From assembly GCA_903843285.1 (NCBI GenBank), contig CAIMPC010000063.1, positions 4,627 through 68,626 of the forward strand: DNA of 64,000 nt, given 5' to 3'. Below are positions 18,078 through 43,166 of this stretch, in pieces. A model generated the notes under the pieces. That model was not told the DNA's origin. It worked only from the letters and a program-made list of their open reading frames with translations, and made no database searches. The number at the start of each line of letters is the position of its first letter. The first letter of the stretch is position 1. A program made the translations under genes and the position numbers. The stretch comes from Candidatus Omnitrophota bacterium. GTDB taxonomy: Bacteria; Omnitrophota; Gorgyraeia; 2-01-FULL-45-10.

Positions 18078-19883
18078 TCACCTTAATGATAAGAACAGTA
18101 ACATAGCTATCATCCCGAGAAAACACCATACCAGATACGTCGGTAGCACTCCGTTATGCAGACGCTTAAGCGGCCGGGCTAAGACCTTAATGGCCCGTGC
18201 CGAGAGATAGTAAATATCCAGCCATCCCGACTGAGCCTGCTTACATATTCTGTTTATAGGTTTAATATCGGTGATCGTATCGTAAAACTCCATGCCGGAG
18301 ACGCGAGGTAAACTCTCCGGGTCCGCACCTCCTACAAAATTATCCACAACGCGAAAACTGCCGGGTCTAAACAGCCAGTACATAAGAGCCCCTATAGCTA
18401 TACCTACCAGTATAAGCAGTGCCGCAAGCGTTGAGCCCCATGTCCCTATATAAGTTAAGCTATTACCTATTGAAGGTAGTATCAATATCGGGATCGGGAT
18501 CTTAAAAGCGAAGACGCCGAATATGACGCAGATCGCGGCCAGGATCAGCATGGGCATATACATAAGAGGGCCCACCTCTTTCACTTCGCTCATGCCCTCC
18601 GAACGCCGGCCTAAAAAAACTGCGTGTAATAGTTTCATAAAGCACGCTATGGTTAGCGCGCCGCCGAACATTGCGGCCGAAAGCCATATGACCCATAATT
18701 TACCACCCTGATCTGCCGATTCTATAATGCCCTGATATATCATCCACTTTGATACGAAGCCATTAAATGGCGGAATACCGCAGATGGAGAGCGATGCTAT
18801 AAGACAAGCCGCAAATGTGATCGGCATGGCCCCGGCAAGCCCGCCCAGCCTATCGAGGTCCGAGGTTCCGGCCTTCTTCTCCACCGCCGTACTGGTCAAA
18901 AATAAGCATGCTTTATAGATGACGTGATTCAACATATGAAATAGCCCGCCTGCGATACCTATGACTGTCCCGCTGGCTATTCCTATTATCATATAACCGA
19001 CCTGCGATATAGATGTGTAAGCGAGCAGTTTCTTATAGTTGCGCTGGGCCAGGGCCAAGACTACAGCGAATATTATAGTGGCCGCTCCTGCGATAAGCAG
19101 GATAGTATTCGATATCTTCGTCATTTTAAATAGATCTAAAGAGACGCGCGCAAGCAGATAAATTCCCAGCAGTTTGTCCAGTGAAGTCGGCAGATAAGCG
19201 AGGAAGGAGCCCGATGTCGTCTCGGCTACATCGGGAAACCATGAGTGAAAAGGCATAGCCCCTGCTTTAGCGAAACTTGCCGAGGCGATCGAAAAATACG
19301 CCACATATGTCATGATACCGGCAATAGGAATTTGAATCTTATCCATAGATAGAGTGCCTGTAATAGCCGATACCAGCGCTATGCCGAACAACATTAAGAC
19401 ATCGGTACCGCCTATTATTATAAGAGCTTTACTGCTGGCTTTCGCCGAACATACCGTTTGGTCCAGATTAATAAACAGATATAGCATCAACGCCAGAAAA
19501 CCCCAGAAGATGAGCATAATGATAAGATTATTCGCAAATAGCGCCCCGAGTGAAGCGCCCAACGTAATTAGCATATATCCGAAATATCTTCCAAATGCCT
19601 TATCCGTGGAACCGAAAGAAAATATCGTTATCAGAAATGTAAATAAGGTCATCGCCATACCTATAAAAGAGGAAAGATTATCGGCGCGAAAAATAATCTG
19701 ATCCATATACTTCCAGACCAAAGGTTTTTCGATAAAAATGAATATGCCGCCGGCTAAGCATGCGGCTGATATGATGCCGGCAATAGATTTGGTGATGCCT
19801 TTTAACCTATCCGGCAATGGAAGGCATATTATACCGGATACGATCGGCCCGATGATCAGAAGTAATATTGGATTTGAAATCAT
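18078..19883 (-). CDS. mrpA: MrpA / NuoL-like antiporter subunit
   Basis: 601 aa, about 16 TM helices, NuoL/MrpA family. Confidence 0.8.
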   Translation of the reverse strand: MISNPILLLIIGPIVSGIICLPLPDRLKGITKSIAGIISAACLAGGIFIFIEKPLVWKYMDQIIFRADNLSSFIGMAMTLFTFLITIFSFGSTDKAFGRYFGYMLITLGASLGALFANNLIIMLIFWGFLALMLYLFINLDQTVCSAKASSKALIIIGGTDVLMLFGIALVSAITGTLSMDKIQIPIAGIMTYVAYFSIASASFAKAGAMPFHSWFPDVAETTSGSFLAYLPTSLDKLLGIYLLARVSLDLFKMTKISNTILLIAGAATIIFAVVLALAQRNYKKLLAYTSISQVGYMIIGIASGTVIGIAGGLFHMLNHVIYKACLFLTSTAVEKKAGTSDLDRLGGLAGAMPITFAACLIASLSICGIPPFNGFVSKWMIYQGIIESADQGGKLWVIWLSAAMFGGALTIACFMKLLHAVFLGRRSEGMSEVKEVGPLMYMPMLILAAICVIFGVFAFKIPIPILILPSIGNSLTYIGTWGSTLAALLILVGIAIGALMYWLFRPGSFRVVDNFVGGADPESLPRVSGMEFYDTITDIKPINRICKQAQSGWLDIYYLSARAIKVLARPLKRLHNGVLPTYLVWCFLGMIAMLLFLSLR

Positions 19884-19890
19884 CTGTTCC

Positions 19891-21081
19891 CTACTTTACA
19901 CCCATCTTCTCTCTTATCCTGCGCGTCTTCTCCTGCGAAAGCCTGATAAGATCCTCTGCCTTAAATAGTTCCTTATCGTTGGTATCCACCACTATCGCCC
20001 TCTCGGTACAGCAATAGCAAGGATCTATTGCGGCCATTATTATGGTCGCATCGGACACGGTTTCGCCCACAACGGTCTCTCTGAATGTCGGAAAGTTCAT
20101 GTAGGTCGGGGCGCGTATCTTATGGCGGACCGGTGAATTTGAGCCATCGCATTTTACATAATGGAAACATTCGCCCCGCGGCGCCTCTATCACTCCTATG
20201 CCCTCACCCGGAGGTATATCCTTAGGCTTCGCATCTATAGGCCCCTCCGCCATCTGGTCCAGGCACTGTCTGACGATACTTGCGGATTCAAACATCTCAA
20301 GCACCCTCACCACGGTCTTGGCGAAGACATCGCCTTCTTTCTGCGTAATTACATTCCACTTAACCTTCCTGTAGACACCATATGGATGATCGCGCCTTGC
20401 GTCTATATCTACTCCTGAGGCCCTTGCCACCGGTCCAAGCGCCGAATATTCTATAGCGGCCTCTTTAGTCAATATTCCTACGCCTTTCAGGCGCGCATGC
20501 AGTACTGGATCGTCGAGAATAGCGCCTTTAAGCATATCGAGTTGCTTTAAAAACTCGTCCAACCTGCTTAAGATGTAGGCGACGTGCTCTTTTTCTATAT
20601 CGCGCCTGACTCCGCCTACTTTATGCATAGCATAGTTCTGACGATTACCTGTGATGGTCTCCATTATGTCGCAAATCGGCTCTCTGTACTTCCATCCCCA
20701 CATGAAAACGGTATTGTAGCCAATGAAGTGGCCTGCCAGTCCGAGCCATAACATATGCGAATGTATCCTCTCGAGCTCCTGCGTAATGGTCCTTATATAC
20801 AGCGCCCTCTCGGGAACCTCAATACCGCATATATCCTCTATCGCCTCGACGCATGCTATAGGGTGGCTCGAAGAACATATCCCGCATATCCTCTCCACGA
20901 TAAAAAGCGACTGGTCAAAGCTCTTAGACTCGGATATTTTTTCGATTCCCCTATGGTTATAGCCAATCCTGACATCGACATCCACGACCTTCTCTCCCTC
21001 TACTATCAGCTTCCAAAACTCAGGCTCCTCCTGCAGAGGGTGATATGGCCCTATAGGTATAATTGATTTCTTATCGCTCAT
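19891..21081 (-). CDS. group 4 [NiFe]-hydrogenase large (catalytic) subunit, NuoD/EchE/MbhL-like
   Basis: 396 aa. It carries IPIGPYHPLQEEP...GYNHRGIEK, the L1 motif RICGICSSSH, EAPRGE, and the C-terminal DPCYCCTER (DPCxxCxxR) followed by a ~35-aa extension. Confidence 0.85.
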   Translation of the reverse strand: MSDKKSIIPIGPYHPLQEEPEFWKLIVEGEKVVDVDVRIGYNHRGIEKISESKSFDQSLFIVERICGICSSSHPIACVEAIEDICGIEVPERALYIRTITQELERIHSHMLWLGLAGHFIGYNTVFMWGWKYREPICDIMETITGNRQNYAMHKVGGVRRDIEKEHVAYILSRLDEFLKQLDMLKGAILDDPVLHARLKGVGILTKEAAIEYSALGPVARASGVDIDARRDHPYGVYRKVKWNVITQKEGDVFAKTVVRVLEMFESASIVRQCLDQMAEGPIDAKPKDIPPGEGIGVIEAPRGECFHYVKCDGSNSPVRHKIRAPTYMNFPTFRETVVGETVSDATIIMAAIDPCYCCTERAIVVDTNDKELFKAEDLIRLSQEKTRRIREKMGVK

Positions 21082-21545
21082 TCTTTCCTCGAATCTCTCT
21101 TAGGCACAATGAAACTTTTTCTCATGGGATAGACATCCTGAGGCCAGTCATCCGGCAGGAGGAGCCGTCTCATATCTTGATTGCCTTCAAAGTTCACTCC
21201 AAAGAGCTCGTGTATCTCCCTCTCTATCCACCATGCCGCCTTCATGACATGAGTAACGGTATCTATAGACGGGTTATCTTTATCGTTCAGCATCGTCCTC
21301 ACCGATACTATTAATCCGGACGGATCGTATGCGAAATGATACAGTATCTCTATCTTATCGAAGTCATCTACGGCGCTCGCTATATTAAACCTGAGGCCCA
21401 AGTCTTTAAACATATATCTGACGACCTCCACTATATCTCTGGGATAGATCTCCACATATGCTCTCCTGGACGATTTCTTCTCAACCTTAAGAACCTTATC
21501 ACCGAATCGGTCATTGATCTTTTTTAATACTTCATCCATCATCAT
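21078..21545 (-). CDS. NuoC-like (30 kDa) subunit
   Basis: 155 aa complex I 30-kDa family protein, overlapping the large subunit by 4 nt. Confidence 0.8.
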   Translation of the reverse strand: MMMDEVLKKINDRFGDKVLKVEKKSSRRAYVEIYPRDIVEVVRYMFKDLGLRFNIASAVDDFDKIEILYHFAYDPSGLIVSVRTMLNDKDNPSIDTVTHVMKAAWWIEREIHELFGVNFEGNQDMRRLLLPDDWPQDVYPMRKSFIVPKRDSRKE

Positions 21546-21979
21546 GATCTGATATCCTTCCCGGCCCTTACTTTACCGACCAGTTTTACCAGGGCCGCAA
21601 TAGTGGCCTCGGGCTTAGGCGGGCATCCCGGTATATATGCATCCACCGGTATTATCTCGTCCAGCGGGGCAAGCGTATTATAACTGTCTTTAAATAACCC
21701 GCGCGAGCATCCACATGCCCCATACACCACGACAAAACCCGGTTTCGGCATAGTCTCGTACAGTTTCTTTATTATCGGCACCGCCAACCTGTTGCAGGAT
21801 CCGGTGCATAGCATAATATCCGCATGTTTAATGCTTCCCACCAACACCAGGCCGAAACGCTCCAGATCGAAGCGCGGGGTAAGGGCATCGAGTATTTCTA
21901 TATCGCAGTTGTTACAGCTACCGCTCGATACGTGAAATATGTTTATCGATCTTGTCAGTACGAATTCTCTTAATCCCAT
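21542..21979 (-). CDS. [NiFe]-hydrogenase small subunit, NuoB-like (20 kDa)
   Basis: 145 aa with CNNCDIE...C...GCPP, the cysteines for the proximal [4Fe-4S] cluster. Confidence 0.85.
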   Translation of the reverse strand: MGLREFVLTRSINIFHVSSGSCNNCDIEILDALTPRFDLERFGLVLVGSIKHADIMLCTGSCNRLAVPIIKKLYETMPKPGFVVVYGACGCSRGLFKDSYNTLAPLDEIIPVDAYIPGCPPKPEATIAALVKLVGKVRAGKDIRS

Positions 21980-21980
21980 T

Positions 21981-22919
21981 CTATCTTCCCAAGTATGCTA
22001 AGGCTAATGACAATAACGCCAAGACTGTCACAACTCCCCAGAAGAACTTCATCGCCTGGTCGATACGTACGCGCGGATTTGTATTTTTTACCACTATCAT
22101 TAATATCAGGATCAATAGGTACTCTATCATGGCCTTTACGAGGCCATCAAGGCTTAATTTAATTCCTCCGAAGTACAGGGTTATTAAAAAGACGGGTATT
22201 ACGAATAAGAGCACGGCCCTGGCCAATTTAAATATCGCAAGCGCCTTCCCTGAATATTCAATATACGCCCCCGCCATTATCTCAGTCTCAGCCTCCGGCA
22301 TATCGAACGGCACAAAGCCAAGCTTCGCCTGAATACATATCAACATAACGAAGAAAGATATGCCTCCCGATGGGTTCATGAATATATCGCCATGTGATCT
22401 TTGGTACATTATGATATCGCCCAACCTTATCGCGCACCCACACTTCATTATCACAACTATAAGCGCAAGTATGAACGGCAGTTCGTATGACAGCATGAGC
22501 TTCATCTCTCTCGAAGAGCCAAGCGATGCCAGAGAGTTTGCGGATGCAAAGCCCCCGAGTATCAGAGCGACCGCCGGGATCAGCAGAAGATAGACGACCA
22601 CGATAACATCGCCGATGAAACCGGTGCGCGGAGAACCATTAATAAGAAAGAGTATCGTAGACACAAGGGTTGCGCTCGTAAGAGCTAATACCGGCATCCC
22701 CAGGAACATGGCCCCGGAGACACCGCTGGGTATGAGCGTCTCTTTGTATAAGGCCAGTTTGATCAGGTCTAAAAAGTTCTGATACCATGGCGGCCCGACT
22801 CTCCATTGAAGCCTGGCCGTGACCTTCCTGTCGATCCATCCGACTAAAAGCCCCATCGATCCGGAGAATAAAAGCCCCGGAAATATTAGGAATGCAAATA
22901 TGTATAATAGCGCCGTCAT
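21981..22919 (-). CDS. NuoH/HycD/MbhM-like membrane subunit
   Basis: 312 aa polytopic membrane protein of the complex I subunit 1 family. Confidence 0.8.
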   Translation of the reverse strand: MTALLYIFAFLIFPGLLFSGSMGLLVGWIDRKVTARLQWRVGPPWYQNFLDLIKLALYKETLIPSGVSGAMFLGMPVLALTSATLVSTILFLINGSPRTGFIGDVIVVVYLLLIPAVALILGGFASANSLASLGSSREMKLMLSYELPFILALIVVIMKCGCAIRLGDIIMYQRSHGDIFMNPSGGISFFVMLICIQAKLGFVPFDMPEAETEIMAGAYIEYSGKALAIFKLARAVLLFVIPVFLITLYFGGIKLSLDGLVKAMIEYLLILILMIVVKNTNPRVRIDQAMKFFWGVVTVLALLSLALAYLGR

Positions 22920-22937
22920 GTTATGCTTACTTTCTAT

Positions 22938-23441
22938 CTATCTCTTTTTTGGAAGCTCCAATATCCTGTCCCATTTGTATTTGGTCTTTATTAGAAGATA
23001 CTCCGATGCCCTAAATATACCCTCGTCTTTATTTTCATCGAATTCCCCAAATTTTATGCCCCCATGACTGCAGAACCCTAAACATACAGGGGTCTCTTCC
23101 CCCTTAATTCTTCCCAGACAATAGTCGCAGCATGCCGTCACAAGCGGTATCGTTTCAGGATATATCACGCCGAACGGGCACGCCCTCGAACATGATTTGC
23201 AGGAGGTACAGCGCATCGTGTATCGCTTTAGCGCATTATTCTCTTTAATGAGCTCCAGGGCCTCCCATGGGCATGAGGCGACACATGGCGCGTCATCGCA
23301 CCTTCGGCACACTACGGCGAAATGCGCAAATTCGCGCAGACTGGTTATGCCGTTGTTGTTCGGATGTTGTATATAACTGCATAACATCCCGCACTCTTCG
23401 CAGGCCGAACAGACATCGAGGTCTATAAGTAATCTTTTCAT
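22938..23441 (-). CDS. polyferredoxin, CooF/HycB-like electron-transfer subunit
   Basis: 167 aa with four Cys clusters (CSACEEC, CRRCDDAPCVASCP, CTSCKSCSRACP and CCDYC...C...C). Confidence 0.7.
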   Translation of the reverse strand: MKRLLIDLDVCSACEECGMLCSYIQHPNNNGITSLREFAHFAVVCRRCDDAPCVASCPWEALELIKENNALKRYTMRCTSCKSCSRACPFGVIYPETIPLVTACCDYCLGRIKGEETPVCLGFCSHGGIKFGEFDENKDEGIFRASEYLLIKTKYKWDRILELPKKR

Positions 23442-23445
23442 GTCA

Positions 23446-24276
23446 TCAGTCCCAAATATTGGGCAAATCTTTTATCTTATCGTAAGGGAATACCGGGCCA
23501 TCTTTACAGGCATAATAGGGCCCTATCCTGCAATGACCGCATTTACCGATCCCGCACGACATATTCTTCTCCATCGAGAGATATATCTGATCTTCTTTAA
23601 AACCCAGGTCCATAAGTTTAAATGTTGCAAACTTCATCATAATAGGAGGCCCGCACACTATCGAGACAGCATTATTTACGTCGAGTCCTTCCGTCTTCAA
23701 TATCGTGGTGACCAGCCCTACGTGTCCGCTCCATGAAGCATCTCCCACGTCGCACGATACTAAAACATCTACATGATCGGCCCGGTCCTTCCAGGTACCT
23801 ATCTCATCCTTATAGACTATATCGCCGCTAGAGCGCGCGCCATATCTAAGTATTATCTTCTTATAATCGTTCACTTCGTTAAAGAGCGCGTATAGCAATG
23901 CCCTGAGAGGGGCAAGTCCGACGCCTCCGCCGACTATAAAAACTTCTTTGCCTTTAAATAGATCGAGCGGATATTTTGTTCCATACGGTCCGCGCAGACC
24001 CACGGTATCTCCCGGCTTCAGCTGGTGAATGAGCTTAGTAACGCGTCCTGCGCTCATTATGGTGAAATCGAGCGTACCTTTATGGTCATGGTTAGACGAA
24101 GGAGTGAACGGCGCTTCACCCACGCCCGGCAGGGTCACATCCATGAACTGACCGGCCCTGAAAGAGATATCCTCGCTGGGTTTCAGCGTAAATGTCTTTA
24201 TGTTGGAGGTCTCTTCGGCTACCTTCAGGACTTCCGCGTTAATAAAAGCATATGGATTTTTTTTACAATTAATCAT
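23446..24276 (-). CDS. FAD/NAD(P)-binding oxidoreductase with C-terminal [2Fe-2S] (HydG / AsrB / PyrK-like)
   Basis: 276 aa ferredoxin-reductase fold with the C-terminal cluster CGIGKCGHCRIG...C. It overlaps the upstream gene by 8 nt. Confidence 0.75.
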   Translation of the reverse strand: MINCKKNPYAFINAEVLKVAEETSNIKTFTLKPSEDISFRAGQFMDVTLPGVGEAPFTPSSNHDHKGTLDFTIMSAGRVTKLIHQLKPGDTVGLRGPYGTKYPLDLFKGKEVFIVGGGVGLAPLRALLYALFNEVNDYKKIILRYGARSSGDIVYKDEIGTWKDRADHVDVLVSCDVGDASWSGHVGLVTTILKTEGLDVNNAVSIVCGPPIMMKFATFKLMDLGFKEDQIYLSMEKNMSCGIGKCGHCRIGPYYACKDGPVFPYDKIKDLPNIWD

Positions 24277-25318
24277 GCGGTGGCTTATTCCATCTTTCCA
24301 GTACCAGGCCCTTCAATACTTCCCTTATGTCTATATCTCCGGGGCATGCTTCAATGCACCTACCACAGCCGGTGCAGGCGAAATAGTTGAGCACCGCGGG
24401 AAAGAATTCAAACTTCTTATCGAACCTGTTGCGAAGCCGCTCATAAAGATGTTTTCGAGGGTTGTGGTTTCCGGCGACCCTGGCGAAAGTGTTATATAAG
24501 CAGGCGTCCCATGCCCTGAAGCGTTTTACCCCGGAGGCATCTTTCTCATCGAACAATAAGAAACAGTGGCATGTGGGACAAGCCAGGTTGCACGCCCCGC
24601 ACTCCACGCAGGTCGACGCCATAGCAGTCCAGAATTCGGTCCGGTCGTAATTCTTTTTAACCATGCCCTTAATCTTGGTAGTATTCGGAGTCTCTCTTTT
24701 ACTGATAAAACCTTCTATCTGTTTCGTAACCCTATCGCGAAGCGACTGCCTCACATCGATCGAATGGATCGGCACAAGCTTAAAGAATGTTCTGAAGTCA
24801 TCCACTATCTTTTGCCCTTTTGGGCTTCCCACCTCGACCAAGAAATAATTATCTACCGATGCTATAGATAAATCGAAAAACTTTCTGGGATACGGAGCAC
24901 CTTCCATCGCCATACAGAAACAAGTCTCCTTGGCATAAGTGCAATCTGCGGCAATTATCGTCGTATTCTTTCTGCTCTGGACATAAAAAGGATCCTCGAC
25001 ATCGCCATCCTGAAATACAAAGTCCTGCAGGACAAGGCTCGATAGATCGCAGCCTTTTACTCCGGCCACAATGAGCGGACGCCTGTCTGTCGGATCGGTT
25101 CCGATCATCCTCTCTCTAACCGGGCTTATGAACGATTTAAACGGTTGGCTCTGTCTGATACCACCCAGTTCTATGCTATCTTCTTTGGCAGAGTTAAAAT
25201 CATCGAAAAATAATTTATCACCATTCAAATAAGGCACAACCACTCTACTGCTTATAGCGAGTCTGCCGAATAAGTCGAATAAGTCTTTCTTTGATATGAT
25301 ATAAGTATTATTTTGCAT
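24269..25318 (-). CDS. 4Fe-4S dicluster protein, HydB / AsrA-like (hydrogenase beta-type subunit)
   Basis: 349 aa with CVECGACNLACPTCHCF and a second Cys cluster CTGCGRCIEACP. It is the first gene after the internal promoter. Confidence 0.7.
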   Translation of the reverse strand: MQNNTYIISKKDLFDLFGRLAISSRVVVPYLNGDKLFFDDFNSAKEDSIELGGIRQSQPFKSFISPVRERMIGTDPTDRRPLIVAGVKGCDLSSLVLQDFVFQDGDVEDPFYVQSRKNTTIIAADCTYAKETCFCMAMEGAPYPRKFFDLSIASVDNYFLVEVGSPKGQKIVDDFRTFFKLVPIHSIDVRQSLRDRVTKQIEGFISKRETPNTTKIKGMVKKNYDRTEFWTAMASTCVECGACNLACPTCHCFLLFDEKDASGVKRFRAWDACLYNTFARVAGNHNPRKHLYERLRNRFDKKFEFFPAVLNYFACTGCGRCIEACPGDIDIREVLKGLVLERWNKPPHD

Positions 25319-25343
25319 ATGTAAGTTATATGGTGGAGGCTAC

Positions 25344-25373
25344 ATTTTAACTCTCGGATGGGACTTCAGTCAA
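25344..25373 (-). promoter_or_regulatory. candidate internal promoter TTGACT-N18-TAAAAT in front of the hydrogenase structural genes
   Basis: On the minus strand, TTGACT (fwd 25368-25373) and TAAAAT (fwd 25344-25349), in the 55-bp gap between hypE and the hydB-like gene. Confidence 0.3.
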
Positions 25374-26408
25374 CTAACAAATCCTGGGAAGCTGATCGCC
25401 TGAAAGCATACCCAGTATCCGCTTGCCGCCAGAAACGGTTTCCAGAATAACTCTTCCGGGGTTATCCTCAGTTACTCTACCGATAGTTCTACTGCCGCGG
25501 CCAACCTTTTCGGAACGCATCGCTTTCAAAATGTCCTTCTCAGCCCCTTTCGCGGCTATTATAATAACCCTGCCCTCGCAGGCGAGATACAACGGATCGA
25601 GGCCGAGAAGCTCACAGGCCTGCCTCACGCCCTCTCGCGCAGGCACTACCGCCTCATCCACTACGATACCGAATTTTGCCGGCGAGGCTATCTCATTAAG
25701 TGTTGTCGCAACGCCGCCTCTGGTGGGGTCGCGCATAAAACGGACCTCTTTCGAGGAGCGCAGCACCTTGCGAATCATTCCGTAGAGAGGCGCGGAATCG
25801 CTCTTCACTAAAGTATCGAATGCTATTCCCTCCCGCTTCGAAATAACACTGATCGCATGGTCACCTATAGGTCCGCTGACGATCACGCAATCACCCGCCA
25901 TTAAATTATTTACCGAGAGATCATCATAATAGACCTCTCCTATCCCGCTTGTGTTAATAAATATCTTGTCACATGCCCCCCGCTCGACAACTTTGGTATC
26001 GCCTGTGACTATTTGAACCTCTGCTGTGGAGGCGGCCCTCGCCATCGAATCTACTATCCGATCCAGCACGCTTCTATCCAGGCCTTCCTCTATGACTGCG
26101 CCGACGGATATGTAAAGAGGCCTGGCGCCGCATACAGACAGATCGTTAACTGTCCCATAAAGTGCAAGGCTTCCGATGTCACCACCGGGAAAAAATATAG
26201 GCTTCACCACATATGAGTCCGTGGTAAACGCTATCTTTTTATCTCCGATCTTTATGATTGCGGAATCCTTCTTTTGATTCAATATGGGATTTGAAAATCG
26301 TTTTAGAAATACGGAATCGATCAGCTTATGCATCTGGCTTCCGCCGCTTCCGTCCGCCATGGTTATATTAGTCATTTTAAATATTTCCGTATTTGTAATA
26401 AGCCGCAC
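25374..26408 (-). CDS. hypE: hydrogenase maturation factor HypE
   Basis: 344 aa AIR-synthase-like protein ending in PRIC. Confidence 0.9.
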   Translation of the reverse strand: MRLITNTEIFKMTNITMADGSGGSQMHKLIDSVFLKRFSNPILNQKKDSAIIKIGDKKIAFTTDSYVVKPIFFPGGDIGSLALYGTVNDLSVCGARPLYISVGAVIEEGLDRSVLDRIVDSMARAASTAEVQIVTGDTKVVERGACDKIFINTSGIGEVYYDDLSVNNLMAGDCVIVSGPIGDHAISVISKREGIAFDTLVKSDSAPLYGMIRKVLRSSKEVRFMRDPTRGGVATTLNEIASPAKFGIVVDEAVVPAREGVRQACELLGLDPLYLACEGRVIIIAAKGAEKDILKAMRSEKVGRGSRTIGRVTEDNPGRVILETVSGGKRILGMLSGDQLPRIC

Positions 26409-27459
26409 ACGTTCCTTCGCCCGAGACCATGCACGAACCGACCGGACGCTCCGGGGTGCACCTATTGCCGAATAATTTGCACTCGTCGGGTCTTTTCATG
26501 CCCCTAAGAACCATTCCGCAAATGCACGCTTTATTCTCTAGGGCAGGGGCCAATTTAACTTTAAATCTCAATGCGGCGTCGAAGTCCGAAAATTCTCTTC
26601 TTATCCTCAGTCCGCTTCGGGCTATTCTTCCGATACCTCTCCATTCGGCAGGACTTTCTTCAAAAACCCTATTCACGATCTTTCGCGCCAGCGGGTTCCC
26701 TTTTGAATCGATAACTCTTCTATACTGCACTTCTACCCTGGGCGAAGATTGCCTCAATAGCATGAGTATCGACTGCAATATATCGATAGGTTCAAACCCG
26801 GCCACAACAGCTCCGATTCCATACTTTTTGGAAATAAATCCGTACGGCTTCGTGCCTATTATTGCGCTTACATGCCCCGGCAGAAGAAACCCATCGATAA
26901 GATTATCGCCGGATGAGGCTATAGATTCAAGCGCCGCAGGCATTGTCTTATGCGCAGATAAAACGGAGTAGTTGGCTATACCCTCTCTCTTTGCTTCGAG
27001 TATCGATGCCGCCACGGTGGGGACTGTCGTCTCAAAACCGACCCCGAGAAAAACCACCTGCTTATCCGGGTTTCTTCCGGCAATATCTATGGCATCGTCC
27101 GTCGAGTAAACTATCTTTATTTCTCTGCCGCTGGCCCTCTCTTTTTCAAGGCTCGAGCGCGATCCGGGCACACGCATCATATCCCCAAATGTCGCAATAA
27201 TAACGTTGGGCAGTTTCGCTATCGCGATGGCGCGATCCAGATAACCATTCGGAGTAACGCACACAGGGCATCCCGGACCGGAGAGCAATTTTATATTTGC
27301 GGGCAATAGACTGCGCAAACCGAACTTAAAGATCGCCATCGTATGCGTCCCGCACACTTCCATGTACCTGTATTCAAAACGCTCATCCACTGACCTACGT
27401 ATCTGTTCGGCCAGCTTTTTGGTAAGGGTGAGGCTTCTGAATTCGTCTATGTATTTCAT
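26377..27459 (-). CDS. hypD: hydrogenase maturation factor HypD
   Basis: 360 aa with GPGCPVCVTP and CGTHTMAI motifs. Confidence 0.9.
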   Translation of the reverse strand: MKYIDEFRSLTLTKKLAEQIRRSVDERFEYRYMEVCGTHTMAIFKFGLRSLLPANIKLLSGPGCPVCVTPNGYLDRAIAIAKLPNVIIATFGDMMRVPGSRSSLEKERASGREIKIVYSTDDAIDIAGRNPDKQVVFLGVGFETTVPTVAASILEAKREGIANYSVLSAHKTMPAALESIASSGDNLIDGFLLPGHVSAIIGTKPYGFISKKYGIGAVVAGFEPIDILQSILMLLRQSSPRVEVQYRRVIDSKGNPLARKIVNRVFEESPAEWRGIGRIARSGLRIRREFSDFDAALRFKVKLAPALENKACICGMVLRGMKRPDECKLFGNRCTPERPVGSCMVSGEGTCAAYYKYGNI

Positions 27460-29126
27460 TTCTTTTCTAAGGTCATAGGATTGAACCTATTCTTTGCAAA
27501 TATATACCAGGCCGCGCATGATACAAATCCTTTCGAAGAGTCTACCCACTCATAACCGCCCGTCTTGTTAACGGTGTAAGGTAACGCCCTGGTTCTCCTG
27601 GAGGATATATTCCTATCGAACAATAATTTATCCATCTGATTTGCATAAAAGTATCCGCGCCCGGAATCACCATAAGCCATATATGCGCACGCCATGTGAC
27701 CGTTACCGTCCACCCAGATATTATTTACCTCTATATCCGGGCCATGAAAAAAACCCACAACCTTTTCATCCAGAATATCCAATGTCTTTCTGTACCTTAA
27801 GTCATACTCCGGTATATTAAGTAGATCTTTATATTCTTCACCCATCGCCAGCACTCGCCATGAATAGTTATCTAATGCCAGGGCCGGGCCCTTAACATTC
27901 GCATCTATCCACCCCTTAATCTTCGCGGCATATTCGTCTTCTTTGCATAGCCTCATCGCCGCATAGCAGTCAATATTAGCCTCCGGATGCCCATAGCCTT
28001 CGTGAAGCTTCTCATCGTTGTTACGCCAGCCATGCTGTATGTAGCCGCCGGGCTTATCGTCTTTATAATAGAAGGTTAAAAGATCTCTTATAAGCTTTAT
28101 TATCGTGTCATACCTGTCGGACTTATACTCTTTCTGGTAGTATTTATAGGCTATTAAAAGCCAGGCCATGTCTCCTATCCATCTGTCTGTACCCGCCGGA
28201 GCGTGATAAGCCTTTACCGGACCGGTATCATTCAATAACACCGATTGATAGAAACCGCGCGGCGAGCCTTTATAAAAGAAGTTCTGCAATGTCGGATCGT
28301 CATTGTTTACCCGTGTGGCATTCGCATAAAAATCCAATATTCGCTCTGCCCTTTCTCGCTCGCCTTTCAGAATGAATGCTATCGCTACGATACTGTTATT
28401 AAACGTCTGGGCAATATTATCTTCCATTGAGGATACGAGGGCCTTATCGCCTGATGATGTATCCTGCATGGCTTTCAGATATTCCAGCACCAGCGGGTCT
28501 TCCGCTATAAGCTCGGCGTCGCGCCTGGGCCTGAAACCATTACCCGGCAATTCCCTGTCCGGGTCCAGGACCGCTCCGCCCATACCGAAGCTCGCCTCGT
28601 CACCCGGTGTGCCGGGGCCGATCTCATCTATCATTACACTACCGCTTCCTCTGCCTGATATCGCAATCTCAAAGGTCACTATCTGATCTAATTTATCATC
28701 GCCGCCCCACCAATGGTCCGCATTATAAGAATATATGACGACTTTGGTCCATTCAGTGTACCTTTTAAGAGGAACCTTCTTTCCGAAGATAGAGCCGTCG
28801 ACGTCTATGAACTTCATTTCTATATCGCCGGCCCCGCCTGCTTTTATATAAAATTCTATCGGATCATTCTCGGTTATCCTGCCGGCCACAACTTTGGCGA
28901 GCGAAACCCATCCGGAATTTTCCTTAAGCATGTAATTTATCTCTAATGCCTGCGCCTGCCTGCCATCAAACGGTTTCACCGTAACCCAGCAACCATCGGC
29001 GGCATTGGTCGACCACTGGGACACATCGTTCCACAGCTCGGCAGATTCGCCGGCTATTGAAACGAACGACAAAATGGCCGTCAGACAGAAGATCGTTATT
29101 ATGCCTATTGATATTTTCACGCGCAT
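27456..29126 (-). CDS. secreted hypothetical protein; N-terminal CBM-like beta domain plus alpha/alpha-toroid-like domain
   Basis: 556 aa with a signal peptide (MRVKISIGIITIFCLTAILSFVSIAG). Its stop overlaps the hypD start by 4 nt (ATGA). The function call is weak. Confidence 0.45.
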   Translation of the reverse strand: MRVKISIGIITIFCLTAILSFVSIAGESAELWNDVSQWSTNAADGCWVTVKPFDGRQAQALEINYMLKENSGWVSLAKVVAGRITENDPIEFYIKAGGAGDIEMKFIDVDGSIFGKKVPLKRYTEWTKVVIYSYNADHWWGGDDKLDQIVTFEIAISGRGSGSVMIDEIGPGTPGDEASFGMGGAVLDPDRELPGNGFRPRRDAELIAEDPLVLEYLKAMQDTSSGDKALVSSMEDNIAQTFNNSIVAIAFILKGERERAERILDFYANATRVNNDDPTLQNFFYKGSPRGFYQSVLLNDTGPVKAYHAPAGTDRWIGDMAWLLIAYKYYQKEYKSDRYDTIIKLIRDLLTFYYKDDKPGGYIQHGWRNNDEKLHEGYGHPEANIDCYAAMRLCKEDEYAAKIKGWIDANVKGPALALDNYSWRVLAMGEEYKDLLNIPEYDLRYRKTLDILDEKVVGFFHGPDIEVNNIWVDGNGHMACAYMAYGDSGRGYFYANQMDKLLFDRNISSRRTRALPYTVNKTGGYEWVDSSKGFVSCAAWYIFAKNRFNPMTLEKK

Positions 29127-29131
29127 CCTAT

Positions 29132-29338
29132 CTATATATCCTTCGCCAGTTCGATGGTTTTTTTTGCTTCATCGGGTTTAATCTTAGCTATCGCGAAACC
29201 GGCATGCAAAAGAATATAGTCTCCCAATTTTACATTTTTAAGCAGCGTAAAATTCACTTTACGCTTAAGGCCCATCGACTCCACCACACCATTATTCCCG
29301 TCGATCTCAATAACCTTCATAGGTATAGCTAAGCACAT
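29132..29338 (-). CDS. hypC: hydrogenase maturation factor HypC
   Basis: 68 aa starting MCLAIPMKV. Confidence 0.85.
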   Translation of the reverse strand: MCLAIPMKVIEIDGNNGVVESMGLKRKVNFTLLKNVKLGDYILLHAGFAIAKIKPDEAKKTIELAKDI

Positions 29339-30456
29339 ATTTTCCTCGCCTCGGCGATAGCGACCTGCCCTATCGGTATCCCGTAATCGTTTGTATTGAC
29401 CGCGGATTGCGTATAAGCATCAAACCCATTCTTATTTAATAACGATAGCGCCTTCTTCTTAAGGTACATATTTTGGAAGACGCCGCCGCTTAATGCAACC
29501 TTATCTATATGAACTTTTTTGCGTAGGCGTATTGCAACATCGGTAATCACCCCGGCCATGGTATTATGAAACTTTGCCGATATAATATTACTACGCAGCC
29601 CTTTATCCATATCCGAAAGGATCCCCTTGATCGTCATAGACATATCGATTAAATACATCTCGTCCTCATACATGATATCAAATTTATAACATCCATTGCA
29701 CAATTCATCAGCTATCTTCTCAAGCTCTATCGGAAGCTCTGCTTCATAAGCCGCAAAGGCCTTAGCTAATACGATACTGGCTACGGCATCAAATAACCTG
29801 CCTGCGCTGGAGGTGAGCGGTGAGTTCATCCTCTCGTCGATCATCTTCCTTAATAACTTAAATCGTTTAACGCTAATCGTCTTCATGCAATATAGATCTG
29901 AATATGCTAGTTTTACGCCAAATGCCTTATAGAGATAGCTTACAGCCATCCGCCAGGGTTCGATCACTGCCGCATCACCCCCCGGCATGGGCACATAGCT
30001 AAAATGGGCAACTCTGGAGAAACTCTGTGCCCGGCCGATAAAAAACTCGCCGCCCCATATACAGCCATCAGGCCCATATCCTGTGCCATCAAATGCTATA
30101 CCTACCACTTCGGTCTTAATGCAATGTTCCGTGATCGCGCTGGCGATGTGTGCCTCATGGTGTTGCACATCGCAAATTTTTGCCCCCAACTCGGATGCAT
30201 GATCTCGGGCGAAACTACTGGAAAAATATGCCGGGTGAAGATCGCACACTACGATGGATGGTTTTATATTGAGCTTACTCTCGTGCGATTTTATAGCCGC
30301 CTCATATGCATTAAGATTATCAGGGTCATATAGTTCACCGAAACCATCGACCAGATATGCCCTGTCTGCCTTGGCGAGTGCGAATGCGCCCTTCATATCC
30401 GCCCCGCACGCCAGTATCGGAACCTTAACCTTAAACGGAAGTTCTACAATCTTCAT
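29329..30456 (-). CDS. hypF: HypF carbamoyltransferase, C-terminal Kae1/YgjD-like domain only (truncated HypF)
   Basis: 375 aa with ILACGADMKGAFALA, VCDLHPAY, VQHHEAHIAS, GIAFDGTGYGPDGCIWGGEF and ALSGGVFQN. It has no acylphosphatase, Zn-finger or YrdC domain, and only 110 bp of non-coding DNA lies upstream. Confidence 0.75.
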   Translation of the reverse strand: MKIVELPFKVKVPILACGADMKGAFALAKADRAYLVDGFGELYDPDNLNAYEAAIKSHESKLNIKPSIVVCDLHPAYFSSSFARDHASELGAKICDVQHHEAHIASAITEHCIKTEVVGIAFDGTGYGPDGCIWGGEFFIGRAQSFSRVAHFSYVPMPGGDAAVIEPWRMAVSYLYKAFGVKLAYSDLYCMKTISVKRFKLLRKMIDERMNSPLTSSAGRLFDAVASIVLAKAFAAYEAELPIELEKIADELCNGCYKFDIMYEDEMYLIDMSMTIKGILSDMDKGLRSNIISAKFHNTMAGVITDVAIRLRKKVHIDKVALSGGVFQNMYLKKKALSLLNKNGFDAYTQSAVNTNDYGIPIGQVAIAEARKICA

Positions 30457-30479
30457 TTCGCTCCGAGATTGTTCACTAT

Positions 30480-30530
30480 ATTATACCGCGCGGGGTTTGT
30501 AACCTGGCATATCTAACCCAGGTTAGATAT
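30480..30530 (-). promoter_or_regulatory. promoter -10 TATAAT plus upstream palindrome ATATCTAACC-CA-GGTTAGATAT in front of hypF
   Basis: A minus-strand TATAAT lies at fwd 30480-30485, about 24 nt before the start. A 22-bp near-perfect palindrome lies at 30509-30530, about 23 nt upstream of the -10. Nearly the same palindrome recurs at 59921-59941. Confidence 0.35.
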
Positions 30531-30566
30531 ATAGACAGGCATCCGCCTGCTTGTGGAGCTAAAAAC

Positions 30567-31370
30567 CTACACCACCACTATTGATATACCCTTTTGGTCG
30601 GCGAAGGATACAATCGTATCCCTGTCTATAAGGAGAGTCTTCTCTGCTTCTAAAGCGAGCGCTGTTCCCCCTGCTCTTGCTAAGGCCTCTACCGTATCGA
30701 GACCCACCAAAGGGATATCGAACCTCATATCCTGGTTGGGCCTAGCCATCTTGACAAGGACAAATCCTTTCTTCGACAGGTTACCCGCCCTGGCGATGGC
30801 TTCATCCGTCCCCTCGACCGCCTCGAGAGCAATTACGGTCTTGTTTTTAACAATAACGGTCTGGCCTATATCGAACCTGGCCAACTCTCTGGCAACAGTC
30901 TTAGCATAATCGATATCTTCCGACTCTTCTTTGTCCGGCTCCCTCTTCGTGATAATGCCTTTGGCGGGCATCAATTCCTTCAAATACGGGGTCGGATCGA
31001 TGATCTCTATCCCGAACTTCGCCAGAAATTCCGACACCTTATTAAGCATCGAGTAATCTTTATTGTCCCCGAGCTTGGTCAGCAGGGATTTTGTCTTCTC
31101 ATCGAATTTCCCGTCATCCTTAAAGAAAAGGTCTTTCTTTATTTTACCCAGAAGAACCACCTTATTTATTCTATTAGAAAGAACTGCAAATATCATCTTC
31201 TGTAAGGCTCCGAATTCGAACCAGATGAATTTATCAACATGATTTTCTAAATCGGTTGCGGTCATTCCATTAATGCCTATACCAACCACTTTATCACCAA
31301 GTCGTCTTGCGTTGTCCGCGAATATTATCGGGAGCCTTCCGGCGCCCGCCACCAAACCTATATTAGCCAT
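30567..31370 (-). CDS. lpxI: UDP-2,3-diacylglucosamine hydrolase LpxI (DUF1009)
   Basis: 267 aa with GLVAGAGRLP, DIGQTV, EAVEGTDEAIAR and DIPLVG, matching the LpxI pattern. Confidence 0.7.
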   Translation of the reverse strand: MANIGLVAGAGRLPIIFADNARRLGDKVVGIGINGMTATDLENHVDKFIWFEFGALQKMIFAVLSNRINKVVLLGKIKKDLFFKDDGKFDEKTKSLLTKLGDNKDYSMLNKVSEFLAKFGIEIIDPTPYLKELMPAKGIITKREPDKEESEDIDYAKTVARELARFDIGQTVIVKNKTVIALEAVEGTDEAIARAGNLSKKGFVLVKMARPNQDMRFDIPLVGLDTVEALARAGGTALALEAEKTLLIDRDTIVSFADQKGISIVVV

Positions 31371-40080: not shown

Positions 40081-41022
40081 CTAATCGAACAACACACTGA
40101 TGGATTTTTCATTATGGATCCTCATTATGGCCTCCCCGAGTAGAGGCGCAACCGAGAGGACCTTTATCCGCGGAATCATCTTATCCTTCGGAATCGGTAT
40201 CGTATCTGTTACCACGAGTTCTTTTATCTCGGAATCTTTTAATCTTTCAAGCGCAGGTCCGCATAACACAGGGTGCGTGATACTAGCGTATACCTCAAGC
40301 GCTCCGGCTTTCTTAAGAGCAGCCACCGCCTCGACCAGACTACCGGCTGTGGCAACCATATCGTCGATAATGACGACGTTCTTACCTTCAACATCGCCCA
40401 TTATGTGCATCGCCTCTGCCTGTTTATCATTGATGCGTCTTTTGTCAACTATAGCGAGATCGCACTTCATCTTCTTGGCATACGCGCGGGCAGTCTTTAT
40501 GCCGCCGACATCGGGAGATACTATCACCATATTCTTGTCGAGCTCGAGCTCTTTTATATAATCGGCGAATATCGTGAACGCATAAAGATGGTCGAGCGGT
40601 ATATCAAAAAAGCCCTGTATCTGTCCTGCGTGTAAGTCTATCGTAAGCACCCTATCCGCACCGGCTACCGTCAAAACATTGGCAACGAGCTTTGCAGTTA
40701 TAGGAACTCTGGGTTGATCTTTTCTATCCTGGCGCGCATAACCGAAATATGGCAGAACCGCCGTGATTCTTTGAGCGGAAGCCCTCTTCAGCGCATCGAT
40801 CATTATCAACAGCTCCATCAGATTATCGTTCGAGGGACACGATGTAGACTGTATCACAAATACATCATGGCCCCTGACATTCTCATTTATCTTGGCACGG
40901 ATCTCTCCGTCGGAAAATTTATCGACTGATGCATCCGCAAGCTCAACTTTCAAGTATTTACATATCTTTAACGCAAGCTCTTTATTGGCATTACCGCTGA
41001 ATATCAATAAGCCGTTCTTCAT
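40081..41022 (-). CDS. prs: ribose-phosphate pyrophosphokinase
   Basis: 313 aa with the PRPP-binding motif and the Prs N-terminus. Confidence 0.9.
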   Translation of the reverse strand: MKNGLLIFSGNANKELALKICKYLKVELADASVDKFSDGEIRAKINENVRGHDVFVIQSTSCPSNDNLMELLIMIDALKRASAQRITAVLPYFGYARQDRKDQPRVPITAKLVANVLTVAGADRVLTIDLHAGQIQGFFDIPLDHLYAFTIFADYIKELELDKNMVIVSPDVGGIKTARAYAKKMKCDLAIVDKRRINDKQAEAMHIMGDVEGKNVVIIDDMVATAGSLVEAVAALKKAGALEVYASITHPVLCGPALERLKDSEIKELVVTDTIPIPKDKMIPRIKVLSVAPLLGEAIMRIHNEKSISVLFD

Positions 41023-42293
41023 TTTACGCTCCTTCTCTCTTTCCCCACCCTCTTCTCTAAGATCCTCGCCGGCACACCTACAACTGTCTTCCCGTCCGGA
41101 ACGTCATGCCCCTTAAGTATTACACAACCGGCGCCCACAGTAGAATTTTTTCCAACTACAAGCGGAGCTATCAAAACTGATCCGACACCGATAAAAGCAT
41201 TGTCCCCTATTAAAGTCTTGTTTTTATTCTTACCGTCGTAATTTGCCGTTATTGTTCCGGCACCGATATTTACACGCTTGCCGAGAGTGGCGTCCCCAAG
41301 ATAAGTGTGATGTTTTACTCTGCAACCGTCGCCTATATCCGTTCTGACGAGCTCCACAAAATTACCTATTATAACGCCGGCTCCCACCCTGACGGTGGAT
41401 GTCAACCTGGCGAATGGTCCGATATGGCAGTCGCGCCCTATCTTTACGTCCGGCCCGATAAATGTATTCGGATGAATTATCGTATCCTGACCAATCACTG
41501 CATCCGGATAGATGGTCGTTGTTGCCAGATCCTCTATGGTCACGCCGCTCAACATCACCTCTTCCAATATTCTATTCTTCAAAACCGCCGTAGCCTCTGC
41601 CAGATCCTTACGGGAGTTTATGCCTATCATCTCATTAACATCCTCGACCTCTATCGAGCCGATCGCTTTACCCGCTTTAGATAATATTTCAACCGTATCC
41701 GTAAGGAAAAATTCCTTCTTCTGGCTATCCGGCAGGACCTGGCTGAGCGATGCGAACAGATCTTTAGCGCTGAAACAGTAAGTCCCGACGTTTACTTCGT
41801 CTATAACCTCTTCGTAAAGCTTTGCATGAATATCTTCAACTATCTTGACGATGTTGCCCGATGAGCTTCTGACTATCCTCCCATATCCTGCCGGATTTTT
41901 AAGCTTAGCCGTAGTCAGCGTAAGGCTCGCACCTGACTTCTCATGCTTGAGGATAAGCTCTTCTATGGTCTTACTGTTAACCAGAGGAGTATCGCCGCAG
42001 ATTATGATCACAGCTCCGTCAAATCCGGACAGTAGCTTCTTAGCCGTAGAAACCGCATCTCCGGAGCCAAGCAGTTTCTTCTGAATAACAATCTTTGTGC
42101 CTACCACCTTGCGGAGATCTTCGCTGCCATACCCGGCGACAGTTATGATATCGGTAACACCGGCGGACTTAAGCGAGTCGAGCACGTAAGATATTATCGG
42201 CTTGCCGAATATATTATGCAATACTTTCGGGGTATCCGACTTCATCCTCGTCCCGCGCCCTGCGGCAAGAACTATGGCTTTTATATCTTTCAA
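41019..42293 (-). CDS. glmU: bifunctional UDP-GlcNAc pyrophosphorylase / GlcN-1-P acetyltransferase
   Basis: AIVLAAGRGTRM at the N-terminus and a left-handed beta-helix hexapeptide C-terminus. The start codon appears to be TTG at 42293. Confidence 0.85.
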   Translation of the reverse strand: MKDIKAIVLAAGRGTRMKSDTPKVLHNIFGKPIISYVLDSLKSAGVTDIITVAGYGSEDLRKVVGTKIVIQKKLLGSGDAVSTAKKLLSGFDGAVIIICGDTPLVNSKTIEELILKHEKSGASLTLTTAKLKNPAGYGRIVRSSSGNIVKIVEDIHAKLYEEVIDEVNVGTYCFSAKDLFASLSQVLPDSQKKEFFLTDTVEILSKAGKAIGSIEVEDVNEMIGINSRKDLAEATAVLKNRILEEVMLSGVTIEDLATTTIYPDAVIGQDTIIHPNTFIGPDVKIGRDCHIGPFARLTSTVRVGAGVIIGNFVELVRTDIGDGCRVKHHTYLGDATLGKRVNIGAGTITANYDGKNKNKTLIGDNAFIGVGSVLIAPLVVGKNSTVGAGCVILKGHDVPDGKTVVGVPARILEKRVGKERRSVK

Positions 42294-42324
42294 TGCCTAC
42301 TCCACTGTTATTGATAAGCGAGTC

Positions 42325-42570
42325 CTGCCGCGCATAGCGCTTTTCCTCGCTAATCGCTCGGCGCTTACGAGCTTCGAATCCCTGACTCCGCCGCCTGAGA
42401 TAACTGGCTGCCCAGCTAGGATTCGGCTACTTCTGTTCGCGGAGCTCACCTGCGTAGCCAGCTCGTTCGCTGCCGCGCATAGCGCTTTTCCTCGCTAATC
42501 GCTCGGCGCTTACGAGCTTCGAATCCCTGACTCCGCCGCCTGAGATAACTGGCTGCCCAGCTAGGATTCG
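42325..42570. repeat. perfect tandem direct repeat, 2 x 101 bp with a 145-bp period; the second copy ends inside tRNA-Gln
   Basis: Positions 42325-42425 and 42470-42570 are identical. The last 21 nt of copy B are the 3' end of the tRNA. Copy A carries the same 21 nt as an orphan tRNA 3' fragment, and 44 bp of unique spacer separates the copies. Confidence 0.8.
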
Positions 42571-42623
42571 AACCTAGACAATCAGATCCAAAATCTGATG
42601 TGCTACCATTACACCACCGGGCA
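42550..42623 (-). tRNA. tRNA-Gln (anticodon UUG), CCA encoded
   Basis: The minus-strand sequence TGCCCGGTGGTGTAATGGTAGCACATCAGATTTTGGATCTGATTGTCTAGGTTCGAATCCTAGCTGGGCAGCCA folds as a cloverleaf. The acceptor stem is 7 bp, the anticodon loop is TTTTGGA and the T-loop is TTCGAAT. Confidence 0.85.
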
Positions 42624-42680: not shown

Positions 42681-43166
42681 CTAAAGTTCGATATCCTCGT
42701 CGTCCATCATCACATGAGGCTTTGGAGCCTGGGTGCGCAACGGTACATGAGGTGCCGGCTGATGCGAGAGAGCGGGAGAAGGAGACTTCTTCTCTTTATC
42801 GTATGCCTCGAGCACCTTCTTCTGTATATAATCTCTGCACTCCGCAGTTATCGGGTGCGCTATATCCTTATGTTCGGACTCCCTGACTGAGCCATCAGCA
42901 CCCGATGCCGGCGCCTTATGTTCGCTCGGAGGCAGAGAAGATCCGCAATTATTGCAATATTTGCTCCTTGCCGCATTTCTGAAATTGCACTTCGGACACG
43001 GATCTTTCACTTTTCTCGAAGGCATAGCGACAAATAGTCCCTTTGTGCCCTCTATGACTTTTACGTTTCTCACGACAAACATGTTGTCGAGCGTAATCGT
43101 CGCATAAGCCTTCAGCTTCTTGTCCTGCCCCTCTTTCATAAAAATCTTTACTTCCGTGATATCCAT
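42681..43166 (-). CDS. spoVG: SpoVG-family protein with an inserted zinc ribbon and an acidic C-terminal tail
   Basis: The protein starts at the ATG at 43166 with MDITEVKIFMKEG...ATITLDNMFVVRNVKVIEG..GLFVAMPSRK. A CPKC...CNNC ribbon follows, and KDIAHPIT resumes the SpoVG fold. The ORF-track upstream extension is doubtful. Confidence 0.7.
   Translation of the reverse strand: MDITEVKIFMKEGQDKKLKAYATITLDNMFVVRNVKVIEGTKGLFVAMPSRKVKDPCPKCNFRNAARSKYCNNCGSSLPPSEHKAPASGADGSVRESEHKDIAHPITAECRDYIQKKVLEAYDKEKKSPSPALSHQPAPHVPLRTQAPKPHVMMDDEDIEL

Follow-up and report, generated by a model that had tools for sequence, protein, structure and literature searches.

The window analysed here, the whole stretch of 64,000 nt of Candidatus Omnitrophota DNA, carries on its minus strand the genes ispE, spoVG, tRNA-Gln, glmU, prs, rplY, pth, rpsF and ssb, in this order. 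The relatives of its GlmU lie in Candidatus Omnitrophota, the best species representative sharing 77% identity, and as a rule a tRNA-Gln(UUG) gene immediately precedes glmU in this phylum, where the two are usually 11–140 nt apart. Between ~19 kb and 64 kb of the window, all Pfam-annotated genes have housekeeping functions, which upholds the original prediction that no integrase lies nearby; none of the Pfam-annotated genes within ~20 kb of the element described below encodes an integrase, recombinase, transposase or reverse transcriptase. An exact-protein look-up with the ORF at 10862–12382 gave no match.

Some neighbouring features deserve mention in their own right. SpoVG (42681–43166, minus strand) has a C-terminal extension that comprises a zinc-ribbon-like CPKCNFRNAARSKYCNNCG motif and an acidic tail rich in Pro and Ala, and its start differs between gene callers (161 or 180 amino acids in length). 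A hydrogenase maturation cluster (HypF C-terminal fragment, HypC, HypD and a HypE-like protein; ~19000–31000 of the window) adjoins a NiFe-hydrogenase/complex-I-like module, with a 556-amino-acid ORF without a Pfam match between them. In several Omnitrophota a conserved motif of the form (T)CCTGAG-hairpin-CGAAGGAC(C) lies in the spacer from tRNA-Gln to glmU, and a long hairpin often stands before it (L059, 6379–6465; L057, 5361–5447; L128, after 6467; L183, after 3042; L026, 359–494). This motif, which may be a glmU leader RNA, is absent from the window's own tRNA-Gln to glmU spacer.

Table 1. Features of the tRNA-Gln to glmU region, in coordinates of the window.
Feature	Position	Strand	Basis
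tRNA-Gln(UUG), intact, CCA encoded	42550..42623	-	ARAGORN; Rfam RF00005, 66.8 bits
21-nt repeat, copy 1: tRNA from C56 (T-loop) to CCA, CGAATCCTAGCTGGGCAGCCA	42550..42570	-	Sequence, repeat search
Element copy 1, complete, 124 nt: variable leader and conserved structured core	42426..42549	-	Covariance model R1, 138.9 bits; alignment A2
Internal motif GGGATTCG, 5' strand of helix P0	42520..42527	-	Complementary to first 8 nt of the 21-nt repeat
21-nt repeat, copy 2: orphan tRNA 3' end, first 8 nt being the P0 3' strand	42405..42425	-	
Element copy 2, truncated: first 80 nt only, identical to copy 1	42325..42404	-	R1, 33 bits
Proximal 101-nt copy: tRNA 3' end and first 80 nt of the full element	42470..42570		Repeat search
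Distal 101-nt copy: orphan 21-mer and truncated element	42325..42425		Repeat search
glmU (TTG start), context only, outside the element	41019..42293	-	

A repeat search of the window returned exactly two copies of a 101-nt direct repeat, 100% identical, starting 145 nt apart and separated by a 44-nt spacer (42426–42469), in agreement with the coordinates originally proposed (Table 1). A chance origin of a perfect repeat of this length is impossible. Read in the tRNA sense, the locus consists of the 5' part of the tRNA, segment A (21 + 80 nt), segment B (44 nt, unique within the window), A again, 31 nt and the TTG start of glmU. The proximal copy of A indeed holds the last 21 nt of the tRNA and the distal copy an orphan version of the same 21-mer, as had been predicted, but the string quoted for this orphan as being in the tRNA sense, TGGCTGCCCAGCTAGGATTCG, is that of the plus strand; in the tRNA sense it reads CGAATCCTAGCTGGGCAGCCA. 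No second tRNA or pseudo-tRNA was detected within the repeat by ARAGORN or Rfam, and a scan of the locus for promoters and terminators gave nothing above shuffled expectation.

The repeating unit is ~145 nt long and comprises a non-coding, protein-free element of 124 nt without any ORF, followed by the tRNA-Gln 3' end in a 21-nt copy. The element runs from a leader side to a ...GAAGTAGC side, and what appeared as a 44-nt spacer is its last 44 nt. The window thus contains one full unit followed by a second unit cut off after 80 nt, i.e. ~1.65 tandem copies, and the identity extends over 101 nt (21 + 80 nt) because the starts of both units coincide. The truncated copy has neither the 3' strand of helix P1, nor helix P3, nor the terminal repeat.

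Allelic forms of the locus

Using exact-protein look-ups with GlmU and SpoVG, we recovered the same species from several lake-metagenome assemblies. The A-B-A form, with a spoVG–glmU gap of 387 nt, is present in at least four of them, namely the window's source contig, L002, L006 (a 69-kb JGI contig) and L008 (a MEGAHIT k141 contig, i.e. with k above the repeat length). A form with a single A and a gap of 242 nt is present in L001, L003 and one ERZ1426681 contig. The 44-nt B is missing from L001 and L003, the single-copy alleles examined at the DNA level, and their flanks are nearly those of the window (L003 is 100% identical over 3.5 kb; L001 has four SNPs).

That the arrangement could be an assembly artefact had been raised in the original prediction. 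The perfect identity of the repeats would fit an artefact, as would their length of 101 nt, which is near common k-mer and read lengths, and the breaking of Logan k=31 contigs at the repeat edge; these contigs end 30 nt into A, which is expected for a graph branch at the repeat boundary. However, the single-copy allele lacks the 44-nt segment altogether, different pipelines gave the identical arrangement in four assemblies, including one at k=141, and homologous arrangements occur in unrelated MAGs and metagenomes. Since B is absent from the single-copy allele, A-B-A is no duplication of pre-existing sequence, and the same observation disposes of a plain slippage duplication without any element. 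Taken as one explanation, artefact or plain duplication is extremely improbable, and we rejected it on the strength of the B-less allele and the k141 assembly. The two forms are better regarded as a population polymorphism, with an artefact being unlikely, even if collapse by the assembler might in principle account for the single-copy contigs.

The other option put forward earlier, a recent local duplication, holds in part: it contributes to the 101-nt identity, even though a duplication without an element does not explain the locus. As even the fast-evolving leader is identical in the two copies, one unit was copied recently from the other within the genome, in either direction, and unit 2 is not an independent arrival. 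In the simplest history, a single unit would have given a tandem dimer, comparable to that of L168 (see below), either through re-insertion or through unequal exchange at the 21-nt repeats, and the distal copy would then have been truncated. Recombination or slippage between the 101-nt repeats would in turn yield the single-copy allele, in which only the broken 80-nt copy is left. More generally, short perfect repeats beside tRNA genes in MAGs should be neither dismissed as assembly noise nor automatically annotated as island scars.

Homologous units in other Omnitrophota

Homologous units with perfect 21-nt repeats were found in ~15 other Omnitrophota lineages. Two distant species representatives carry a perfect orphan that repeats the final 21 nt of the host's own tRNA-Gln, 159 nt (L015) and 199 nt (L057) downstream, and a scan for orphan tRNA-Gln 3' ends revealed 11 metagenome loci (L107, L114, L115, L117, L123, L128, L143, L168, L183, L184 and L197) with an insert of 99–178 nt between the tRNA and a perfect orphan, along with a further case at a contig edge (L120). 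The metagenome inserts show homology to the combined 80 nt and B of the window. The boundary of the 21-nt repeat, between TT and CGA...CCA, is identical in L015, L057 and the 11 metagenome loci, and the orphan matches the resident tRNA perfectly in every lineage. Overall, the element is present or scarred in ~10 of the 66 Omnitrophota species representatives that have a tRNA-Gln, with a patchy distribution.

The comparison of the tRNA-Gln locus among relatives that had been suggested at the outset revealed both occupied and empty sites with precise boundaries. L059 has the tRNA and trailer of L057 without the insert, the trailer found after the tRNA in L022 stands after the orphan in L012 and L015, and the window can be set against L001 and L003 in the same way. 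The empty sites of L059 and L022 identify the inserts as insertions. Presence and absence alone give no polarity, because a precise loss between 21-nt repeats is easy.

Tandem arrays are not confined to the window. L168 contains two identical units, L114 a full and a truncated unit, and L123 a full unit and, behind it, a diverged one whose repeat has decayed, the copy farther from the tRNA being in L114 and L123 the truncated or diverged one; the relative L011 retains a truncated copy only. In L143 and L184 the element lies behind a tRNA-Gln(CUG) within a Gln-Leu-Glu tRNA cluster, a locus separate from the UUG gene, so that it is the tRNA-Gln 3' end, not glmU, with which the element is associated. 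Each of the two element subtypes is found at both tRNA-Gln loci (core identity of 92% between L143 and L128 and of 81% between L184 and L015). Across elements the leader is divergent and the core conserved, the core of the window being 88% identical to that of L107 and, by eye over 63 shared nt, 94% identical to that of L011. Core identity correlates only weakly with the identity of the host GlmU (r=0.47). Searches with the covariance model R1 over the 64-kb window and 1.28 Mb of Omnitrophota loci gave matches solely beside tRNA-Gln.

Several further observations concern the tRNA-Gln 3' flank. Decayed or minimal orphans of the tRNA-Gln 3' end without an element occur in L027 (9912–9932; four mismatches, 17 nt past the tRNA), L043 (~3200–3225), L039 (~9780–9805) and L141 (minus strand, 55–99; a 13-nt insert and then a perfect orphan), and are probably scars of earlier insertions. 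Small cassettes lie immediately 3' of tRNA-Gln in several lineages, with a nucleotidyltransferase-like ORF (MIFYEEIFREFQ...) and a GIY-YIG-like ORF (L019, 1473–1973; L052, 6140–6637; L143, past the orphan; L016, 9314–9838; L056, just downstream and ending at 6332), the site in L019 also holding a partial tRNA-3'-like GCCCAGGGCAACCA. The tRNA-Gln 3' flank is a general insertion hot spot. In L170 (39–964), a truncated GT4 (glycosyltransferase-4) ORF of 68% GC is fused to Omnitrophota-like sequence of 40% GC, exactly between ...GGCCGTCTCCGACGGCCGGATGGC and CGAATCCTAGCTGGGCAGCCA; the same 33-mer closes the second element copy in L123. L170 is probably a chimeric contig, the alternative being a real foreign island at the same junction.

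L082 (112–300) represents a variant element, in which a hairpin resembling an intrinsic terminator lies between the tRNA and the element. Past this hairpin lies a 25-nt, nearly perfect copy of the tRNA 3' end in antisense (TTGGGCTGCCCGGCTAGGATTCGAA), then a divergent core and a distal repeat reduced to CGAATCC. L082 suggests that in all elements the internal motif originated as a copy, in inverted orientation, of the tRNA 3' end.

Conserved fold of the element

An alignment of 11 element cores (A2) yielded a junction of helices P0, P1, P1a, P2 and P3 with inner stems, P1 including a tandem G.A. In A2, 96.3% of cells pair, versus 21–36% in slid-partner controls, and 13 pairs show compensatory changes on both sides; none of 500 shuffles reached the observed values. 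RNAalifold independently gave the same helices and added P1a. In P0, the internal motif pairs with the first 8 nt of the orphan (GGGATTCG/CGAATCCT); this stem equals the duplex of the tRNA T-loop and T-stem and covaries with it, following the T-loop of the host (CGAAT/GGATTCG; CGAGT/GGACTCG or GGGCTCG; CGAGC/GGGTTCG). Pair 12-115 of P0 is UA in 10 sequences and CG in one (L057, L115 and L037 were judged by eye). A conserved fold with compensatory changes, as expected of structured ncRNAs in general, is therefore present. The covariance model R1 recognized the full copy in the window at 42405–42533 with 138.9 bits (E=2.7e-32) and the truncated copy at 42294–42388 with 33 bits.

Three conserved tandem G.A/A.G motifs are located on the tRNA-sense strand, and it is therefore this strand that folds, as RNA or ssDNA. 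The folded strand, whether an RNA co-transcribed with the tRNA or ssDNA, would be what selection or the recombination machinery sees. A strand call from G.U pairs alone was discarded as too weak (7 G.U versus 4 A.C), and an extended helix joining the leader with a 13-nt acceptor/CCA tail was also rejected, as it was no better than with shuffled leaders in 12 elements.

We looked for known relatives of the element in several collections. Against Rfam 15, 5 kb around the locus (E<=1) matched the tRNA alone, and 161 nt searched at E<=10 gave nothing meaningful and no ribozyme, on which basis a known ribozyme, riboswitch or other RNA family was rejected. Phage and plasmid collections (blastn) gave zero matches, as did three scans of viral contigs, and no integrase-like ORF was detected in the larger tRNA-Gln to glmU gaps. 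A full-length parent sharing the ends of the element was found neither in viral contigs, phages and plasmids nor among 110 metagenome matches and the larger tRNA-Gln flanks, and the literature searched contained no published description of such a tRNA-Gln element. A miniature, non-coding and structured insertion targeted to a tRNA is thus unmatched by Rfam, by phage or plasmid sequence, or by the literature found.

These results bear on the suggestion that the repeats are the scar of an element, i.e. that a large island or prophage was almost wholly deleted and left attL and attR 44 bp apart. Such a scar would account for a direct repeat of the tRNA 3' end that begins in the T-loop, and decay products of the type of cis-mobilizable elements (CIMEs) are known. 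Nevertheless, the 44 nt and the 80 nt after the tRNA together form a complete, conserved and structured 124-nt element with the same boundaries in many Omnitrophota; random deletions would not leave the same ~105-nt core in more than 12 lineages, the covarying helices bridge what would be the left and right ends of the island, and the collections listed above yielded no full-length relative. We consider a large-island remnant very improbable and set it aside in view of the conserved fold and the absence of any parent element from those searches.

The element might instead be the gene of a resident functional ncRNA, a structured trailer co-transcribed with tRNA-Gln whose 3' end would be set by the tRNA 3' copy, with slippage or homologous recombination involving the tRNA-derived repeats as the source of duplications, losses and transfer between loci. 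The strong covariation points in this direction, as do the invariance of the unpaired nucleotides and tandem G.A motifs of the tRNA-sense strand, the conservation of the core beside a divergent leader, the weak tracking of host phylogeny (r=0.47) and the lack of a linked recombinase; the perfect match between orphan and tRNA in each lineage could be explained by selection for pairing with the tRNA 5' half. Less easily reconciled with a resident gene are the patchy distribution, the empty sites in very close relatives (L057 versus L059), an allele with the broken copy alone in the window's own species, the terminator-like hairpin that separates tRNA and element in L082, and the occurrence of both subtypes at both tRNA-Gln loci. 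From the sequences compared, a resident ncRNA is possible but rather doubtful; were it true, it would represent a new structured RNA class tied to tRNA-Gln.

Possible mode of insertion and comparison with known systems

We are somewhat inclined to regard the unit as a member of a miniature, tRNA-Gln-specific, non-autonomous family of insertion elements of Candidatus Omnitrophota, or else as the mobile gene of an ncRNA; this reading is not mutually exclusive with a resident ncRNA. Fixed boundaries, residence at two unlinked tRNA-Gln loci (UUG and CUG), closely related empty sites, tandem arrays with decayed distal copies and a fold that incorporates the tRNA-derived repeat all argue for mobility, as does the start of the repeat in the T-loop, a recognized integrase sublocation. 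Against this stand the absence of a recombinase, transposase or reverse transcriptase gene within ~20 kb, the failure to find a larger parent element with these ends, and the size of a 145-bp circle, which is very small for classical integrase chemistry. Moreover, the host tracking (r=0.47) and the conserved core fit vertical residence under purifying selection equally well, presence and absence lack polarity, and the single-copy contigs could be collapses.

Islands and prophages classically land at tRNA genes, normally with their own integrase, whereas the entity landing at tRNA-Gln here is a structured non-coding nucleic acid of ~125 nt, recurrent in a poorly known phylum. If mobile, it would be among the smallest site-specific insertion elements, which poses the question of which enzyme or RNA-processing step moves it. 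A unit would enter by Campbell-type recombination inside the 21-nt tRNA segment (the T-loop attachment class); this step would either depend on a recombinase supplied in trans from another locus or rest on the tRNA-derived homology itself, and the newest copy would insert beside the tRNA. Spread might alternatively proceed by homologous exchange, with the tRNA 5' part and the orphan serving as flanking homology. We also entertain, as an unlikely model, a protein-free self-folding element that homes to the tRNA-Gln T-loop, P0 presenting a copy of the target to a host recombinase or the element passing through an RNA intermediate released by tRNA processing. With the tRNA gene as its landing pad, such a homing element would be comparable, within bacteria, to integron cassettes, CTX-type single-strand integration or SINEs. 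In a related and likewise unlikely model, the orphan 3' end would serve tRNA-Gln as a substitute for its own 3' half or would guide RNase P.

Elements that are co-transcribed with a structural-RNA target are exemplified by R2 in 28S rDNA and by tRNA-derived SINEs. The resemblance, an analogy only, lies in the insertion in the same orientation into a highly expressed structural-RNA gene, by virtue of which the tRNA-Gln element could be transcribed with the tRNA and freed by host tRNA processing. Unlike R2 and SINEs, it has no reverse transcriptase partner, poly(A) or ribozyme signature, and no ribozyme of Rfam matched it.

With MITEs the element shares its small size, its non-coding, structured and non-autonomous nature and its polymorphism between close relatives. 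It differs in having a single target, tRNA-Gln, in place of many dispersed copies (R1 matches in the 64-kb window and 1.28 Mb of Omnitrophota DNA all lie by tRNA-Gln), and a flanking repeat of 21 nt in place of a 2–10-bp duplication. Clear terminal inverted repeats are lacking, as is a related transposase, the sole inverted repeat being the 8–11-nt P0.

Integron attC sites and the attP(+) of CTX phage exist only as folded single strands and are recombined by IntI or by the host XerCD (PMC5027507, PMC4792948). Like these, the tRNA-Gln element is short and non-coding and is defined by the fold of a single strand, its P0 inverted repeat would rebuild the target duplex as a stem, units are seemingly added at the proximal site to give arrays, and the unit needs no recombinase of its own. 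On the other hand, A2 contains neither R/L boxes (GTTRRRY) nor dif-like XerCD half-sites, the sequence is highly conserved besides the structure, the repeat measures 21 nt versus 7, and no IntI is encoded nearby.

The last comparison is with integrase-mediated insertions and CIMEs. The T-loop is one recognized sublocation class of tyrosine-integrase attachment sites, a repeat from T-loop to CCA being a hallmark, and decayed elements accreting at tRNA genes are documented (CIME-type decay products). The original prediction took the orphan 3' end as the mark of integrase-mediated insertion; insertion at a tRNA gene stands, and the start in the T-loop fits the integrase sublocation, but the integrase is absent from the element, the neighbours of its att-like site being spoVG and glmU. 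The tRNA-Gln element also differs from CIMEs in measuring 99–178 nt and encoding nothing, in possessing a conserved covarying fold that is no random remnant, and in closing this fold with a helix that uses the att-like repeat itself; no parent ICE, IME, phage or integrase was found in our searches. Although no integrase, carried or ancestral, came to light in these searches, the element is in its working closest to integrase-type insertions and CIMEs, with which it shares the direct repeat of the tRNA 3' part from T-loop to CCA next to an intact tRNA (at least 13 loci), occupied and empty alleles with precise boundaries in close relatives, and tandem arrays in which the older, decayed copies lie farther from the tRNA.
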